Position numbers and translations under genes: made by a program | Assembly (NCBI GenBank): GCA_045634545.1 | Contig: JAZRAL010000009.1 | Location: 6,470-70,469 of the forward strand | Direction of reading: 5' to 3' | Source: Alphaproteobacteria bacterium | Lineage (GTDB): Bacteria > Pseudomonadota > Alphaproteobacteria > RF32 > CAG-239 | Length of the DNA: 64,000 nucleotides | In this document: in pieces, positions 4,148-20,567 of the stretch | Layout of the letters: each line of letters starts with the position of its first letter | Position numbering within the stretch: position 1 is the stretch's first letter | Notes under the pieces: model-generated | The model's input: only the letters and a program-made list of their open reading frames with translations | Told to the model about the DNA's origin: nothing | The model's database searches: none

Positions 4148-4186
4148 ATCATCCCTCGATTGCGTCTAGCAATCGTCAAGGGGGAT
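4148..4186. repeat. 38-bp palindromic repeat (copy A): tcatCCCTCGATTGCgtctaGCAATCGTCAAGGGgga
   Basis: Imperfect inverted repeat with arms CCCTCGATTGC and GCAATCGTCAAGGG. Near-identical copies lie at 17308-17345 and 20530-20567, with a degenerate copy at 5021-5045. About 100 bp upstream of the ankyrin 1 start codon. Confidence 0.6.
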
Positions 4187-4190
4187 CATT

Positions 4191-4946
4191 CTAGTCTCCC
4201 ATTCCAAAACCTTTTTTAATTTTATAAAGAAAACTATTCTTATTTCTAGCATCCTCTAACATTTTCTTTACTTTATCATTTTCTACCAAATCAAGAGCTG
4301 TTTTTCCTCTATTATCCTTAGCCTCAATGTCCGCCCCTTTTTCTAATAACAGTTCTACAACTTCACTATGACCTCTACGAGAAGCCCACATAAGCGAAGT
4401 CTGTCCATCTTCATCCTTAGCCTCAATATCCGCCCCTTTTTCTAATAACAATTTTACAGCTTCACTACACCCTCTGTAAGAAGCCCATATAAGCGAAGTA
4501 TCTCCATCTACATTTTTAGCCTCAATATCCGCCCCTTTTTCTAATAATACCTTAACTACATCACTATGACCATTTGATGAAGCCCATATAAGCGAAGTAT
4601 ATCCATTATTATCTTTAGCTTCAATATCCGCCCCTTTATTTATTAACTCTTTTACTTTTTCAAAATTTATTTCTTTCTGACCACATTCTTTAATCAACTC
4701 TTGCCCTAATTCTTCTGCCTTTTCTTCATCAATAAAATCTCTAGCCTTGTTGGCTTTTAGCATTTTTGCAATTTTAATTTCATTTAATTCATTTGCGAGC
4801 TTTAAGGCAGACTTTGCGCCATACAAAGCATTTACATCAACTCCAAGTTTAATTAGCATATCAAGTTTTGCAAGTTTAATATGCTCTGCCATATCCTCAT
4901 CTTTAATAATCTCAAATAACTGCTTTTCTAAGATATTTTCACTCAT
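4191..4946 (-). CDS. Ankyrin-repeat protein (paralog 2)
   Basis: 251 aa with the conserved N-terminal module MSENILEKQLFEIIKDEDMAEHIKLAKLDML. ANK repeats present (GYTSLIWASSNGHSDVVKVLLEKGADIEAK x4). C-terminal tail ends in KKGFGMGD. Confidence 0.85.
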   Translation of the reverse strand: MSENILEKQLFEIIKDEDMAEHIKLAKLDMLIKLGVDVNALYGAKSALKLANELNEIKIAKMLKANKARDFIDEEKAEELGQELIKECGQKEINFEKVKELINKGADIEAKDNNGYTSLIWASSNGHSDVVKVLLEKGADIEAKNVDGDTSLIWASYRGCSEAVKLLLEKGADIEAKDEDGQTSLMWASRRGHSEVVELLLEKGADIEAKDNRGKTALDLVENDKVKKMLEDARNKNSFLYKIKKGFGMGD

Positions 4947-5020
4947 TTTTGCCCCGTTTTTCTAAAAAACATAGCCTATTTTATCACAAAATCACCCACT
5001 TTGCAACAAATATCTCCCCC
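4947..5020 (-). promoter_or_regulatory. Conserved ankyrin-family leader (copy 2) followed by a degenerate palindrome remnant at 5021-5045
   Basis: ttttgccccgtttttctaaaaaacatagcctattttatcacaaaatcacccactttgcaacaaatatctcc, then aaagtcatcccacaattgctccctc, a decayed version of the 38-bp palindrome. Confidence 0.5.
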
Positions 5021-5100
5021 AAAAGTCATCCCACAATTGCTCCCTCTTTTTATTTATCACGCCTTGTTTTGCATCGAAATTATCAAAAAATCTACAATAT

Positions 5101-5135
5101 AAAAAAAGCGGTAGTTTTAGCTACCGCTCAATATT
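5101..5135 (-). terminator. Rho-independent terminator of the phosphofructokinase gene; same hairpin sequence as at 3236-3275
   Basis: aaaaaaagcggtagttttagctaccgctc: hairpin GCGGTAG/CTACCGC plus a T-run on the minus strand, directly after the pfk stop at 5154. Confidence 0.6.
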
Positions 5136-5153
5136 CAAAAATAAAGTACAATC

Positions 5154-18638: not shown

Positions 18639-18640
18639 AA

Positions 18641-19294
18641 TTACTCTCCCATCCCAAAACCTCTTTTAACCTTTGCAAAAAATCTATTTTTACAAGCTTT
18701 TTTTATTACATCTCTTGTTTCATCATCTTTAGCTAAATCAATCGCCGTTTCTCCATCATTGTTTTTAGCTCCAACATCAGCCCCATTTGATATTAAAATT
18801 TCCACAATTTCCTTATACCCATCTCTAGCAGCATACATCAAAGCTGTTTCATTCCATTTATCTTTTAGATTAACATCAGCCTTGTTTTCTACTAATAAAT
18901 CAGCAACCTCCTTATGTCCCCAAAACGAAGCCACCATCAATAGTGTAGAGCCAATCCTATCTGTTGCATTAACATCTGCACCCATATCTATTAATTCTTT
19001 AATTTTTTTAATATCAAATCTATCTTCTAAACAATTATCAAATAATTTAGCGCCTAATTCTAGAGCTTTTTCATCATCAATAAAATCTCTTGCCTTATTA
19101 TCTTCCAACATTTTTGCAATTTTTGTTTCATTTAATTCATTTGCGAGCTTTAAGGCAGACTTAGCACCATACAAAGCATTAACATCAACGCCAAGCCTAA
19201 TTAATATATCAACTTTAGCAAGTTTGATATGTTCCGCCATTTCTTTATTTTCGATAATTTCAATTAATTGACTTTCTAACGTTATTTCACTCAT
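18641..19294 (-). CDS. Ankyrin-repeat protein (paralog 4)
   Basis: 217 aa. N-terminal module MSEITLESQLIEIIENKEMAEHIKLAKVDIL. ANK repeats present. C-terminal tail ends in KRGFGMGE. Starts 2 nt after paralog 3, so probably operonic. Confidence 0.85.
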   Translation of the reverse strand: MSEITLESQLIEIIENKEMAEHIKLAKVDILIRLGVDVNALYGAKSALKLANELNETKIAKMLEDNKARDFIDDEKALELGAKLFDNCLEDRFDIKKIKELIDMGADVNATDRIGSTLLMVASFWGHKEVADLLVENKADVNLKDKWNETALMYAARDGYKEIVEILISNGADVGAKNNDGETAIDLAKDDETRDVIKKACKNRFFAKVKRGFGMGE

Positions 19295-19299
19295 TTCTT

Positions 19300-20451
19300 T
19301 TAACTTTCAAATAAATTTTTAATACTTCCAATAAATCGTCCACTTTCTTTTATATTTCTCGTTTTAACAGCTTCAATTATCGCTTTTCTTACTACTCCAT
19401 TATATGTACACATCAAAGCATTTTGACCTTTATTATTTTTTTGATTAACGTTAGCTCCTTTTTGAATTAATAACTCCACAACTTCCTTATGACCTTCAGA
19501 TGAAGCCCCTATCAAAGCTGTACACCCATCATTATCCTTTTGATTAATATCAGCACCATTTTGAATTAATAGCTCCACAACTTCCTTATGACCTTGTCTT
19601 GAAGCCCTCATTAAAGCAGTCCATCCATCCTCTCCCTTTTGATGAACATCAACCCCTTTTTGAATTAATAATTTCACAACTTCCTTACGACCTTCAGATG
19701 AAGCCTTCATCAAAGCTGTATCACCATCATTATCTTTTTGATTAATATCCGCCCCTTTTTGAATTAATAGCTCCACAACTTCCTTATGCCCATAATGTGA
19801 AGCCCCCATCAAAGCTGTCCACCCATACCTATTTATTTGATGAATATCCGCCCCTTTTTGAATTAATAGCTCTACAATTTCTTTATAACCATGTTCTGAA
19901 GCCCTCATCAAAGCTGTATTTCCATAATCAGATTTTTGATTAACATTAGCCCCTTTTTGAATTAAAAGCTCCACAACTTCCTTACGACCTTCAGATGAAG
20001 CCCCCATCAAAGCTGTCTCTCCATACCTATTTATTTGATGAATATCCGCCCCATTTTGAATTAATAGCTCTGCAATTTCTTTATAACCATGTTTTGAAGC
20101 CCTCATCAAAGCTGTCTGACCATTGTTATCTTTTTGATGAACATCAGCCCCTTTTTGAATTAATAACTCCACAACATCCTTATGCCCCCTCTCTGAAGCA
20201 TACAACAAAGCATTATTACCATAAACATCTTTTTGATTAACATCTGCTCCTTTTTGAATTAATAACTCCACAATTTCCTTATAACTATTTTCTGAAGCCC
20301 ACATCAAAGCTGTCTGACCATAATCATTCTTTTGATGAACATCAACGCCAAGCCTAATTAGCATATCAACCTTGGCAAGTTTGATATGTTCCGCCATTTC
20401 TTTATTTTCGATAATTTCAATTAATTGACTTTCTAACGTAACTTCACTCAT
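19300..20451 (-). CDS. Ankyrin-repeat protein (paralog 5, about 10 ANK repeats)
   Basis: 383 aa. N-terminus MSEVTLESQLIEIIENKEMAEHIKLAKVDML, then directly ANK repeats. The 5' roughly 110 nt are nearly identical to paralog 4. Confidence 0.85.
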   Translation of the reverse strand: MSEVTLESQLIEIIENKEMAEHIKLAKVDMLIRLGVDVHQKNDYGQTALMWASENSYKEIVELLIQKGADVNQKDVYGNNALLYASERGHKDVVELLIQKGADVHQKDNNGQTALMRASKHGYKEIAELLIQNGADIHQINRYGETALMGASSEGRKEVVELLIQKGANVNQKSDYGNTALMRASEHGYKEIVELLIQKGADIHQINRYGWTALMGASHYGHKEVVELLIQKGADINQKDNDGDTALMKASSEGRKEVVKLLIQKGVDVHQKGEDGWTALMRASRQGHKEVVELLIQNGADINQKDNDGCTALIGASSEGHKEVVELLIQKGANVNQKNNKGQNALMCTYNGVVRKAIIEAVKTRNIKESGRFIGSIKNLFES

Positions 20452-20510
20452 TTTTGCCTCAAATTTCTCAAAACATAGCCTATTTTATCACAATTTACCC
20501 CTTTTTTCAA
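20452..20510 (-). promoter_or_regulatory. Conserved ankyrin-family leader (copy 3)
   Basis: ttttgcctcaaatttctcaaaacatagcctattttatcacaatttacccc shares the core ctcaaaacatagcctattttatcacaa with the leaders at 4046 and 4947. Confidence 0.5.
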
Positions 20511-20529
20511 TAAAAAACACACTATAAAA

Positions 20530-20567
20530 GTCATCCCTCGATTGCGTTTAGCAATCGTCAAGGGATC
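20530..20567. repeat. 38-bp palindromic repeat (copy C)
   Basis: gtcatccctcgattgcgtttagcaatcgtcaagggatc, about 80-115 bp upstream of the paralog 5 start. Confidence 0.6.

Follow-up and report, generated by a model that had tools for sequence, protein, structure and literature searches.

The window analysed here is a 64-kb stretch of DNA that carries on its minus strand the ankyrin-repeat genes ANK1 (3284..4045, 253 aa, Pfam Ank 1.8e-30) and ANK2 (4191..4946, 251 aa, Pfam Ank 1.1e-33), together with an array identified by Pfam, ANK5-ANK4-ANK3 (17361..20451), the members of which (19300-20451, 18641-19294 and 17361-18638, respectively) are spaced 2-5 nt apart. Promoter-like sites of the same strand were recognized in the sequence for ANK1 (TTGCAA-N17-TAAAAT with the TG of an extended -10, 4076..4104), ANK2 (TTGCAA-N17-TAAAAT with TG, 4978..5006) and ANK5 (TTGAAA-N17-TAAAAT with TG, 20482..20510), and that of ANK1 lies within a 180-nt block (family D7) paralogous among ANK1, ANK2 and ANK5. 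A terminator scan revealed canonical intrinsic terminators after PFK (5106..5129, minus strand) and next to pssA (17222..17245, probably bidirectional); a 62-nt module containing the PFK terminator (family D17) is repeated at 3228-3289, after ANK1.

Copies of a short palindromic element lie beside these genes. By reading and by pattern search of the whole 64 kb, three plus-strand copies of the form (G)TCATCCCTCGATTGC-N5-GCAATCGTCAAGGG were located at 4150-4182 (c1), 17310-17342 (c2) and 20532-20564 (c3), which bears out a preliminary description of near-identical palindromes at three sites. The pattern CATCCCTCGATTGC-N5-GCAATCGTCAAGGG has three exact matches, all on the plus strand, against a chance expectation of 0 (maximum 0) in 100 dinucleotide-preserving shuffles, and the 7-bp core palindrome occurs in the window at these three sites only, even with two mismatches tolerated. 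All 28 specified positions are the same in c1, c2 and c3, and the loops differ (GTCTA, ATTAA and GTTTA, respectively). Run over the entire window without filters, a covariance model scored c2 at 76 bits (E 5e-23), c3 at 69.7 bits and c1 at 42.5 bits and returned no further copy (next best E = 3.9), in agreement with the earlier statement that the element is confined in this window to the ANK loci.

In full, the copies extend over 17308..17352 (c2), 20530..20574 (c3) and 4148..4186 (c1) of the plus strand. The intact copy c2 consists of a GTC tag, an ATCCCT/AGGGAT outer stem, a CGATTGC/GCAATCG inner stem, a TCA bulge and a CTAC-GAATT tail; it is placed 13-19 nt past the ANK3 stop, between the convergent ANK3 and pssA, with an RNA fold of -19 to -20.9 kcal/mol (z -4.4 to -4.7), and because the terminator at 17222..17245 stands between pssA and c2, the latter is not the sole possible terminator for ANK3. 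Copy c3, also intact, lies 19 nt upstream of the ANK5 promoter's -35 hexamer and 84 nt past the Sua5/TsaC stop (z -3.9 to -5.4). Copy c1, 8 nt past the ANK2 stop and 43 nt upstream of the ANK1 -35 hexamer (z -3.0 to -3.4), is slightly degraded, with an ATCAT head replacing GTCAT, AAGGGGGAT, two additional G residues in the right outer arm and a diverged tail. The distances given in the preliminary description proved correct: c1 and c3 are 105 and 81 bp upstream of the starts of ANK1 and ANK5, respectively, and c2 is 19 bp past the ANK3 stop. The adjacency of c1 to the ANK2 stop and of c3 to the Sua5/TsaC stop was missing from it.

Direct reading added an extra partial copy on the plus strand, composed of the tag and left arm GTCATCCTTGATTAC, 12 nt before c1 (4122..4136), and a decayed plus-strand copy between the PFK terminator and the ANK2 promoter. 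The latter, first placed at 5021-5045, is real and larger than claimed (5025..5095): its tag or head and left arm GTCATCCCACAATTGC occupy 5025-5040, its right arm and tail (GCATCG ... TCAAAAAATCTAC) occupy 5071-5095, and about 30 nt of degenerate filling separate the halves. It scores under the covariance-model threshold; with it as the fourth, the density amounts to 3-4 copies in 64 kb.

Architecture and distribution of the element family

The family follows a common plan: a (T/C)GTC tag, a 6-bp outer stem starting with A-T, a 7-9-bp variable inner stem, a 4-6-nt loop, a conserved 3-nt TCN bulge in the 3' part and a CT(T/A)C-RAATT tail. Compensatory changes were detected in 11 of 13 stem pairs (155 cells), with 97.9% of cells paired; none of 500 shuffles attained the observed values, and slid controls paired only 27-44%. 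Stem pair 1 is A-T in 126 of 131 copies and pair 2 is T-A in 121 of 131. The unpaired G-T-C, T-C-(A) and C-T-N-C are conserved at 94-99%. Among 132 distinct copies, GTC is preceded by T in 70, by C in 33 and by A in 25, the last accounting for about one fifth. The 13-bp RNA hairpin has a free energy of -17 to -21 kcal/mol. Since G-T and A-C mismatches in the stems are equally frequent (17 vs 14), a functional RNA strand is not indicated. For the three window copies the fold z values range from -3 to -5.4, and both helices of the element are preserved by compensatory changes.

A scan of genome contigs found the exact pattern in at least 113 blocks among the matches listed, mostly in MAGs of Alphaproteobacteria from gut and rumen, each with multiple copies, and the family head signature (GTCAY-type) stood just 5' of the pattern in 85 of 126 among the matches listed. 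At least 20 MAGs of this kind carry the element in many copies. A generic architecture scan recovered 155 elements, compared with 0 in reversed-sequence controls, and the covariance model gave 184 matches in 595 kb. More distant relatives lack the element over about 300 kb around pssA, which makes the family patchy. In Hadza MAGs, canonical units of the CGTC type (e.g. tGTCATTCCGGCG-GA-CGCCGGAATCCAg), a class of repeats discussed below, adjoin the element.

Strong copies are intergenic in 85 of 91 cases, and the neighbouring genes are arranged in tandem (40), convergently (26) or divergently (7), so that the element adjoins gene 3' ends and avoids divergent promoter regions. Outside the lineage of the window the recurrent neighbours are flagellin (11 ORFs), a pilin-like protein (5), rplO (2) and an EngA-like protein (2), the element being placed after flagellin genes, directly upstream of pilin-like genes and beside rplO and others; in one relative, SIG43, it forms arrays of alternating orientation. 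No transposase gene accompanies the element in about 0.6 Mb of flanking DNA, and the neighbour families include no recurrent transposase-like cluster. In a tblastn screen, neither the window nor the gut Alphaproteobacteria loci retrieved showed a RAYT or IS200-like ORF, the sole match being in an unrelated genome.

Association with ankyrin genes and the variable island

In the window, all three intact copies fall in the 5 ANK-flanking gaps among 31 gaps of at least 45 bp (P ~0.002-0.003, with copies treated as independent). In the related MAG SIG44, a copy is present in 27 of 33 ANK-flanking gaps vs 3 of 30 other gaps, and 28 of 35 copies are located within 250 bp of an ANK ORF; these ankyrin figures rest on paralogous copies that are not independent of one another, from loci retrieved for carrying the element. 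The subfamily with the CGATTGC stem occurs at almost every ankyrin-gene boundary in the window and in SIG44, and homology among copies runs on into ANK 3' ends and downstream promoters. Each SIG44 ANK ORF is followed by one element in uniform orientation; all 27 copies examined from this lineage carry GTCAT on the C-rich strand, with a weak bias elsewhere (40 vs 23). At one SIG44 locus (L105, 4154-4220) two ANK ORFs are separated by 67 nt that the element occupies, with a stop codon 3 nt before it and a Shine-Dalgarno sequence and ATG within 13-16 nt after it. Half-element duplication as at 4122..4136 recurs in SIG44, with 1-2 extra half elements about 38 nt apart.

The ankyrin link is real yet lineage-specific, and the element is not ankyrin-specific in general: ankyrin neighbours number 0 in all other lineages. 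The functional link that had been drawn from confinement to the ANK loci is only partly upheld: enrichment is strong in this lineage, and the copies are largely paralogous and were duplicated with the genes. Occurrence at many unrelated intergenic sites with no ANK enrichment, which had been named as the refuting observation, was found for the family and not for this lineage.

Copies c2 and c3 bracket the ANK5-ANK4-ANK3 array, a hypervariable ankyrin island of 3.2 kb. Identity between the window and SIG44 is 98.5% up to 17307 and about 75% from 17308, the first base of c2; the island shows about 72-83% identity, compared with 97-100% in both flanks, a level that resumes at 20635, just past c3. 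Orthologues of c2 were identified in SIG44 (L105) and two metagenome contigs (L114 and L115), with the same stems and different loops. Among the three strain types, the pssA flank and the stems are identical, the loops are ATTAA, GTTTA and GCCTA, and the ANK genes beyond the element differ. The SIG44 orthologue of c2 has a 63-nt insertion with a half element directly at its head, and the site syntenic with c3 in SIG44 retains the right arm only, the rest being lost in an alignment gap of about 28 columns.

Origin and possible functions

The element probably represents an undescribed family of bulged-stem REPs that was amplified with the ANK genes and acts as portable homology and as an RNA hairpin, not as a dedicated regulator of ANK genes. 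The ANK genes may have been amplified as units consisting of a REP, a sigma70-type promoter, an ANK gene and a second REP, in which case most copies would be paralogous by descent. The identical repeats of about 45 nt would provide portable homology through which unequal and inter-strain homologous recombination could expand, contract and swap ankyrin cassettes, and the variable island would end at repeats because homologous recombination uses them; island borders at the elements would also arise if the divergent unit were the ANK genes plus their untranslated regions. The recombination site suggested earlier has indirect support in that c2 and c3 bound the island and identity to SIG44 breaks at the first base of c2; a repeated 45-mer acted on by ordinary homologous recombination would explain the data no less well than any dedicated recombinase.

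Intercistronic copies between ANK ORFs must be transcribed, and the transcribed element is predicted to form a 13-bp hairpin a few nt after the ANK stop codon. By analogy with what is thought for other REPs, this hairpin may be a 3'-exonuclease barrier or a weak terminator that insulates each cassette. Several SIG44 copies are placed after a canonical terminator and a terminator is next to c2, so a 3'-UTR role cannot apply to every copy.

That the main function is to end each ankyrin transcript, as a hairpin-only terminator or a Rho or processing signal, is unlikely. The hairpin is stable, stands 5-19 nt past ANK stop codons in constant orientation and, for ANK2 and Sua5, takes up the one place open to a terminator ahead of the following promoter, and copies are over-represented between convergent genes and at gene 3' ends; but no U-run follows on either strand, as the preliminary description had noted and our reading affirms, and the terminator scan omits the hairpin yet finds canonical terminators nearby. 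Moreover, some copies come after a canonical terminator, copies in SIG43 are mostly oriented the other way with respect to the upstream gene, and downstream ANK genes start 13-16 nt after some copies, which a strong terminator would silence.

RAYT recognises a conserved unpaired tag and a bulged hairpin on GTAG REPs, and the element presents this type of signal. One copy is nested within another copy's loop (L080), indels of half elements coincide precisely with the head, SIG43 contains alternating arrays and the GTCAT strand is uniformly C-rich in this lineage, as a mobile miniature transposon (REPIN/MITE) would have it if it were served by a transposase elsewhere (RAYT, other HUH or IS110-type) and inserted independently beside ANK genes. 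Such an origin is improbable. The nested copy and the head indels are the only signs of mobility, no filled-vs-empty site pair was found, the three window copies show no target-site duplication, the screen for RAYT and IS200-like ORFs and the search for a recurrent transposase-like neighbour were negative in the window and the fetched gut loci, strand bias outside this lineage is weak, and flanking homology shows that most ANK-adjacent copies were duplicated with the gene; published CGTC REPs are likewise without a dedicated transposase (PMC3733652). The earlier REP/MITE-like assignment thus stands for the REP part, the element being a dispersed, covarying hairpin of a superfamily found in many gut Alphaproteobacteria, and not for the MITE part.

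An operator for a dimeric transcription factor of the ANK promoters, with the arms as half-sites and the loop as an uncontacted spacer, had also been proposed and appears very unlikely. Copies c1 and c3 do precede the -35 hexamers of conserved extended -10 promoters, three SIG44 copies lie at a constant 13-14 nt from TTGCAA, and arms are invariant among copies and strains with varying loops. Against this, the -35 spacing is unequal between c1 and c3 (43 and 19 nt), c2 sits between two convergent 3' ends with no promoter there, and several SIG44 copies occupy intercistronic gaps of about 67 nt, followed by a Shine-Dalgarno sequence and ATG, that leave no room for a promoter. Across the family the stems change by compensatory substitutions and the unpaired bases are the conserved ones, and in other genera the element adjoins flagellin, pilin-like, ribosomal-protein and other genes and avoids divergent promoter regions.

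Finally, an integron-like attC site, by which each ANK ORF with its element would be a cassette moved by a site-specific integrase, is extremely unlikely: the single element after each SIG44 ANK ORF in the same orientation, the imperfect palindrome with conserved unpaired bases and the direct copies bounding the island recall such a system, but the termini are unlike R''/R' boxes (RYYYAAC ... GTTRRRY), the element of 45 nt is shorter than attC sites, which span 57-141 bp, several ankyrin genes have their own promoter, the family occurs elsewhere mostly as single copies next to housekeeping genes, and no integrase is among the recurrent neighbours.

Comparison with known repeat systems

The REP family favoured here shares with intrinsic (Rho-independent) terminators a G+C-containing hairpin just past the stop codon, and differs from them in having no U-tract, in repeating one sequence at many loci with conserved unpaired flanks and in coexisting with canonical terminators beside it. 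As in the GTAG REPs, BIMEs and REPINs of Gammaproteobacteria, a conserved unpaired tetranucleotide adjoins an imperfect hairpin, the units are extragenic and enriched at 3' ends, and alternating-orientation arrays exist in SIG43; unlike in GTAG REPs, the tag is GTC(A) instead of GTAG, no RAYT is near any copy, and singletons predominate over inverted pairs. The roles that Newbury et al. in 1987 and Shyamala et al. in 1990 reportedly proposed for REPs are mRNA 3'-end protection and a function as the join points of tandem duplications.

The element fits best in the CGTC/TGTC-tagged REP superfamily typical of Alphaproteobacteria. CGTC-tagged REPs (families CGTC-1 to CGTC-4; Di Nocera, De Gregorio and Rocco 2013, BMC Genomics 14:522, PMC3733652) have an unpaired CGTC/TGTC tag, A and T at stem positions 1-2, a 4-5-nt loop and a short unpaired tail, are mostly alphaproteobacterial, lie between unidirectional or convergent ORFs near upstream 3' ends without a dedicated transposase, and form a superfamily that takes in Neisseria dRS3 and Rickettsia RPE-4 and RPE-6 (PMC3733652). 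The element resembles them in its tag, the A/T start of the stem, loop size and within-family loop variation, the short unpaired tail, subfamilies with alternative complementary stems, alphaproteobacterial hosts, intergenic location near the upstream 3' end and lack of a transposase gene. In contrast to their 8-9 uninterrupted pairs, its 13-bp stem has two tiers (6 + 7-9) and a 3-nt TCN bulge on the 3' side, its tail is CT(T/A)C then RAATT instead of CCA, about one fifth of copies have A ahead of GTC, and head-to-head dimers, predominant among CGTC REPs, do not occur in the window and are rare in SIG44. The sequence is absent from the published CGTC set, and a full-text search for its 16-mers gave no match; with its two-tier bulged stem the REP family is previously undescribed and is distinct from CGTC-1 to CGTC-4.

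Neisserial intergenic mosaic elements (NIME) consist of arrayed dRS3 repeats (Bentley et al. 2007, PLoS Genet 3:e23, PMC1797815), for which it was proposed that they favour the exchange of neighbouring genes through either homologous or site-specific recombination. The element differs from NIME in its host class, in accompanying genes for ankyrin-repeat proteins instead of surface antigens, in occurring once per gene boundary instead of in long dRS3-RS arrays, and in that a phage-encoded recombinase targeting the repeat is not known for it. Both are short palindromes of the same superfamily clustered beside genes for variable host-facing proteins, with repeat numbers that differ from strain to strain, recombination end points within or close to the repeats and short spacer modules between repeats, to which the half elements and 22-nt spacers of SIG44 may be compared.

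Sequence, fold and gene neighbourhood of the element

A pattern search of the window for CATCCCTCGATTGC-N5-GCAATCGTCAAGGG found the palindrome at 4150-4182, 17310-17342 and 20532-20564, all on the + strand and with 0 mismatches in the 28 specified positions, the chance expectation being none. These sites belong to three intact copies, c1 (4148-4186), c2 (17308-17352) and c3 (20530-20574), which lie where the preliminary description had placed them. With its conserved flanks the full unit is about 45 nt long, GTC-ATCCCT-CGATTGC-loop-GCAATCG-TCA-AGGGAT-CTAC-RAATT (repeat family D13 of the window), and the loops of c1, c2 and c3 are GTCTA, ATTAA and GTTTA, respectively. 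The tag with its preceding base is CGTC in c2, AGTC in c3 and a degraded TATC in c1, which the covariance-model score also marks as slightly worn. A partial second head and left arm was seen at 4122-4136 by repeat inspection. The decayed copy previously described at 5021-5045 is real, lying between the terminator of the phosphofructokinase gene (PFK) and ANK2, and its span is corrected here to 5025-5095. An unfiltered covariance-model scan of all 64 kb returned c1, c2 and c3 and no other copy, which bears out the confinement of the element to the ankyrin loci within the window. The 7-bp core palindrome had no further site in the window with up to 2 mismatches tolerated, simple unbulged CGTC REPs were absent from it, and its copies are singletons on one strand, not inverted pairs.

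On either strand the element folds into a 13-bp hairpin with a 3-nt bulge (-17 to -21 kcal/mol, z = -3 to -5.4). At the gathering score, Rfam matched only a tRNA in the whole window, and nothing relevant was found around c2 at E values up to 10. This tRNA-Leu (anticodon TAA; 16147-16233, - strand), 190 nt upstream of the pssA-like gene, is the sole Rfam/ARAGORN match in the window. Full-text literature searches with 16-mers and 10-mers of the element gave chance primer matches to the 10-mer only. Three further candidates were considered and rejected: an internal promoter (the -10 hexamer of TTGACG-N17-AGGGAT is poor, and promoter scans were silent), a short ORF from the ATG of the reverse-complemented head GATGAC (frames not conserved among copies), and a self-cleaving ribozyme, considered for the GUC motif (one hairpin only, without a conserved catalytic core or an Rfam match).

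Five ankyrin-repeat genes were identified by Pfam, all on the - strand, namely ANK1 (3284-4045), ANK2 (4191-4946), ANK3 (17361-18638), ANK4 (18641-19294) and ANK5 (19300-20451), and none beyond these was found in the window. They are flanked by genes for an Opp-type ABC transporter, phosphofructokinase, a CDP-alcohol phosphatidyltransferase (pssA-like, + strand) and Sua5/TsaC. Copy c1 lies 8 nt past the ANK2 stop and 105 nt ahead of the ANK1 start, c2 lies 19 nt past the ANK3 stop in the convergent ANK3/pssA gap, and c3 lies 84 nt past the Sua5 stop and 81 nt ahead of the ANK5 start. A paralogous 5' block of 180 nt (D7) is common to ANK1, ANK2 and ANK5 and contains, on the - strand, an extended -10 promoter-like site (TTGCAA or TTGAAA, N17, TGnTAAAAT) at 4104->4076, 5006->4978 and 20510->20482, respectively. 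ANK3 and ANK4 lack this block and lie 2-5 nt from the preceding gene, so they are probably co-transcribed with ANK5.

Other repeats were also recorded in the window. A 62-nt module with a canonical terminator (AAAAAAGCGGTAG...CTACCGCTT) flanks the ANK1-ANK2 pair on both sides, at 3228-3289 and 5093-5154 (82% identity), which suggests that this pair arose by duplication of a terminator-bounded unit. Two paralogous signal-peptide protein genes on the - strand (59684-60685 and 61046-61759) have a common N-terminus, MAWGENIQKSMKK...ANAQ; identity over their 5' ends and upstream regions is 89-95% (60585-60957 vs 61659-62029), and an exact 40-mer occurs twice beside them (59646-59685 and 61003-61042).

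A bulged hairpin family in gut Alphaproteobacteria

The preliminary description had proposed a search for the palindrome beyond the window. Scanning one genome per species with CCTCGATTGC-N4-6-GCAATCGTC matched at least 113 blocks of 8 kb. Among the matches listed, about two thirds came from low-GC MAGs named 'Alphaproteobacteria bacterium' from animal and human guts (SIG43, SIG44, Reindeer_2_mag_112, Hadza, RUG, RGIG, BRZ and SGB), with many copies per genome and with the flanks GTCATC ... AAGGGATCT(T/A)CRAATT preserved. The rest of the matches listed were isolated, in high-GC genomes and without these flanks, and are chance. Relaxing the plan to GTCAY, a 6-bp outer stem, any inner hairpin, the outer stem and RTCYNC gave 155 matches in the retrieved loci and 0 in reversed sequences, and the superfamily comprises at least 80 distinct sequences in these loci. 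Its inner stems include CGATTGC/GCAATCG, CGACTAC/GTAGTCG, CGTTTTGC/GCAAAACG, CGTTTTTC/GAAAAACG and TATTTTTTG/CAAAAAATT, and its outer stems include ATCCCT/AGGGAT, ATGCCT/AGGCAT, ATCGCT/AGCGAT and ACCCCT/AGGGGT.

A covariance model, R1, was made from 20 members and found 184 copies in 595 kb. In the R1 alignment 97.9% of cells were paired and 11 of the 13 pairs had changed on both sides (in 155 cells); these pairing figures are upper bounds, the alignment being fitted to the model and the sequences related, and the margin is still large, with no shuffle reaching the observed values and a structure slid by 1-3 columns pairing at only 27-44%. The two helices are kept by compensatory changes. The stem has 6 + 7 (at most 9) pairs with a conserved 3-nt bulge and a loop of 4-6 nt. 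The most conserved positions, at 94-99% throughout, are unpaired: the G-T-C that precedes the stem, the bulge T-C-(A) and the C-T-(T/A)-C that follows the stem. Among 132 distinct copies, the tag bases G, T and C occur in 125, 130 and 129, the base preceding them is T in 70, C in 33, A in 25 and G in 3, and the tail bases C, T, (T/A) and C occur in 129, 129, 80+37 and 124, followed by RAATT. Pair 1 is A-U in 126/131 and pair 2 is U-A in 121/131 (both >92%). The conservation of these unpaired bases suggests that they may be read by a dedicated protein. Mismatches of the G-T and A-C kinds (17 vs 14) favour no RNA strand, and copy strand relative to GC-skew is fully biased in the window's lineage and weakly so elsewhere (40 vs 23), a comparison confounded with gene orientation.

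REPs in general are dispersed over a genome in high copy number. At least 35 copies of the element occur in 14 retrieved 8-kb blocks of SIG44, the closest available relative MAG, and 3-4 in the 64-kb window, and the element is absent over about 300 kb of more distant relatives (pssA 67-81% identical). In several 8-kb blocks of SIG43 (L010, L050, L027, L046 and others), three to four hairpin types with common GTCAY...RTCTTC ends and short conserved linkers alternate in orientation, forming BIME-like arrays. A second repeat, GGGGATGTGCTAAAG..TCATGATTTTTTT, lies just upstream of several SIG44 elements behind non-ankyrin genes (L009, L013, L060, L092 and L106) and does not occur in the window. A block labelled Candidatus Gastranaerophilales (L008) has element flanks as in Reindeer_2_mag_112 and a 135-aa ORF in common with block L077, and is probably the same alphaproteobacterium, mis-binned.

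According to the heuristic ORF calls made in the MAG loci, 85 of the 91 strong copies are intergenic, and the gaps that hold them are convergent in 26 cases, tandem in 40 and divergent in only 7. None of the copies outside the window's lineage adjoins an ankyrin gene; flagellin (11) and a pilin-like protein (5) recur beside them, as do pairs of rplO, EngA-like, ferritin-like and other ORFs. The paralogous pilin-like genes of Reindeer_2_mag_112 (L028, L054, L071 and L077) have an element that ends 12 nt ahead of their Shine-Dalgarno sequence, which places it in the 5' leader rather than behind a gene. An active transposon with its own enzyme is improbable and has no direct support. Clustered neighbour ORFs comprised ankyrin, flagellin, pilin-like and housekeeping families only, with no transposase family and no recurring integrase. 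A tblastn screen with approximate RAYT and IS200 TnpA queries was negative for the window and the retrieved gut Alphaproteobacteria loci; the RAYT query works, since it gave a weak match in an unrelated high-GC contig (L090). Insertion activity is hinted at directly only in Reindeer_2_mag_112, where at L080 ~504-585 an element, GTCATCCTTGGGCTCGTCCCGAGGATCT, is nested in the loop of GTCATCCCTCCTCATTTTC...GAAAATGAGGTCAAGGGATCTTC.

The element delimits ankyrin cassettes and a variable island in this lineage

Block L105 of SIG44 is syntenic with window positions 16564-23916. Identity between the two is 98-100% over pssA up to 17307, falls to about 75% from 17308, the first base of c2, and is back to 97-100% from 20635, just past c3, which indirectly supports the earlier suggestion that the palindrome could be a recombination site. 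Farther out the comparison is a mosaic (67-87% at 21835-23916), and the mosaic identity around the ankyrin island indicates frequent inter-strain recombination in the region. SIG44 carries a 63-nt insertion with an extra half element at the head of c2, and at c3 it has lost the tag, the left arm and the loop. In two same-species metagenome contigs, L114 and L115, neither the pssA flank nor the stems are altered, but the loop is GCCTA and a different ankyrin gene lies beyond the element. Among the three strain types, the loop and everything on the ankyrin side differ, and the other side hardly does. Exact-protein look-ups had nothing on record for Sua5 and PFK and found pssA only in a 1.2-kb contig, which carries an orthologous c2. 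A metagenome search with pssA for an empty site (pssA-Sua5 without ankyrin genes) found none; apart from the same-species L115 with its orthologous c2, it gave relatives at 67-81% pssA identity, which have no synteny, ankyrin genes or element at the locus.

In SIG44, 28 of the 35 model matches lie within 250 bp of an ankyrin ORF, and within the retrieved SIG44 blocks a copy occurs in 27 of 33 ankyrin-flanking gaps vs 3 of 30 others (odds ratio 40, P = 7e-9, a statistic inflated by paralogous, non-independent copies and by the choice of blocks). The usual layout is an ANK stop, 4-9 nt, the element and then a promoter block at a fixed 13-14 nt; alternatively, the element is followed directly by the Shine-Dalgarno sequence and start of the next ANK gene. 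Similarity between copies extends into the ANK 3' ends and downstream promoters, hence most ankyrin-adjacent copies are paralogous and were duplicated with the gene. The element marks the limits of ankyrin cassettes, as well as of the variable island.

The palindrome had also been put forward as an operator for a dimeric regulator, a reading that is not supported. Copy c2 occupies a convergent gap, promoterless intercistronic copies exist, the stems vary by compensatory changes, and family copies occur in non-ankyrin settings. At L105 4154-4220 the element is the entire 67-nt intercistronic gap, so this copy must be co-transcribed with the genes on both sides and can act neither as an operator nor as a strong terminator. 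The conspicuous palindrome can be named and explained as a REP and not as an ankyrin regulator. Two things speak against a terminator, which as an intrinsic one would be a G+C-rich hairpin with a U-run within 0-2 nt: the U-run is missing, and downstream genes start 13-16 nt away. The terminator scan skipped the element on both strands and called three canonical hairpin and T-run sites nearby (3264->3241, 5129->5106 and 17222-17245), in line with the earlier remark that it is not a canonical intrinsic terminator.

Explanation and relation to known repeats

The element is a REP-type repeat that is structured, extragenic and dispersed. Of the earlier alternative of a REP/MITE-like element, the REP-like part stands, the element being a dispersed extragenic hairpin, and the MITE part is not supported. 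MITEs have terminal inverted repeats with target-site duplications and are related to an autonomous IS; the flanks of the three window copies have no direct repeat in common, RAATT on the 3' side belongs to the conserved element itself, and no IS was found nearby. The element also differs from RAYT-associated GTAG REPs and REPINs, which flank a RAYT gene and lie mostly as inverted pairs, in its GTC(A) tag, in the absence of a RAYT from the loci screened and in the singleton state of the window copies.

We propose that [REP]-[promoter]-ANK-[REP] units have been amplified, and that the identical repeats of about 45 nt may recombine homologously within and between genomes, by which cassettes would expand, contract and swap. 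In mRNA, a hairpin a few nt past the stop would hinder 3' exonucleases and partly insulate neighbouring units, a role not open to all copies, since a canonical terminator precedes some of them. A stronger reading, which we consider improbable, is that the repeats and the ankyrin genes form a diversification system of the NIME or cassette kind. A recombinase or nuclease specific for the hairpin would read the invariant GTC tag, TCN bulge and CTWC tail and insert, excise or exchange [promoter-ANK-REP] cassettes at resident REPs. If this were true, the reaction would have left its footprints in the hypervariable loops and in the half-element scars at the heads, and the outcome would be strain-specific ankyrin repertoires, probably host-directed. 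The element fails as an integron attC site, which has R''/R' core sites RYYYAAC ... GTTRRRY, spans 57-141 bp and accompanies promoterless cassettes and an adjacent intI, whereas the element has the termini GTCAT ... ATCTWC, is about 45 nt long and adjoins ANK1, ANK2 and ANK5, which have promoter-like sites of their own.

The closest known relatives are the CGTC-tagged REPs, a superfamily with an unpaired CGTC tag, often TGTC (variants TGTC, CCTC), and complementary A and T at the first and second stem positions (Di Nocera et al. 2013, PMC3733652). They occur mainly in Alphaproteobacteria, in gaps between unidirectional or convergent ORFs near the upstream 3' end and without a dedicated transposase, and they include Neisseria dRS3 and Rickettsia RPE-4 and RPE-6 (PMC3733652). 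The element shares the terminal unpaired tag, the A-T first and T-A second pairs, the intergenic position in tandem or convergent gaps near an upstream 3' end and, in the window and the retrieved gut loci, the lack of a transposase. The four described families have a stem of 8-9 bp, a loop of 4-5 nt and an unpaired tail with the consensus CCA, and the authors noted that bulged members may have escaped their search (PMC3733652). In contrast, the element has 13 pairs in two tiers with a TCN bulge and the tail CT(T/A)C-RAATT; its bulged two-tier stem prevents filing it in CGTC-1 to CGTC-4. Canonical CGTC-type units (GTCATTCCGGCG-GA-CGCCGGAATCCAG) adjoin it in Hadza MAGs. Because its stem and tail differ and neither Rfam nor the full-text search contained it, we file it as a new bulged family among the alphaproteobacterial CGTC/TGTC-tagged REPs, ordinary in kind. 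The superfamily is thereby widened by a two-tier bulged plan and by a large clade of uncultured Alphaproteobacteria from gut and rumen, across many of whose MAGs the element is conserved; R1 can be used to annotate it.

REPs have been proposed as join points of tandem duplications in enterobacteria, and the strain divergence at the element fits this too. In Neisseria, dRS3/NIME arrays lie by variable genes, repeat number differs among them, recombination end points fall in or near the arrays, and as of 2007 no other genus was reported to have such arrays (Bentley et al. 2007, PMC1797815). The strain divergence found here, in the loop and on the ankyrin side of the element and hardly at all on its other side, matches the dRS3/NIME pattern. 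The finding is of moderate wider interest in that these repeats frame hypervariable ankyrin islands, paralleling the dRS3/NIME arrays by variable surface-protein genes of Neisseria. Should this parallel hold, focusing recombination on host-interaction genes would be a recurrent use of short REPs, and this lineage would offer a second, independent test system beside the NIME arrays.
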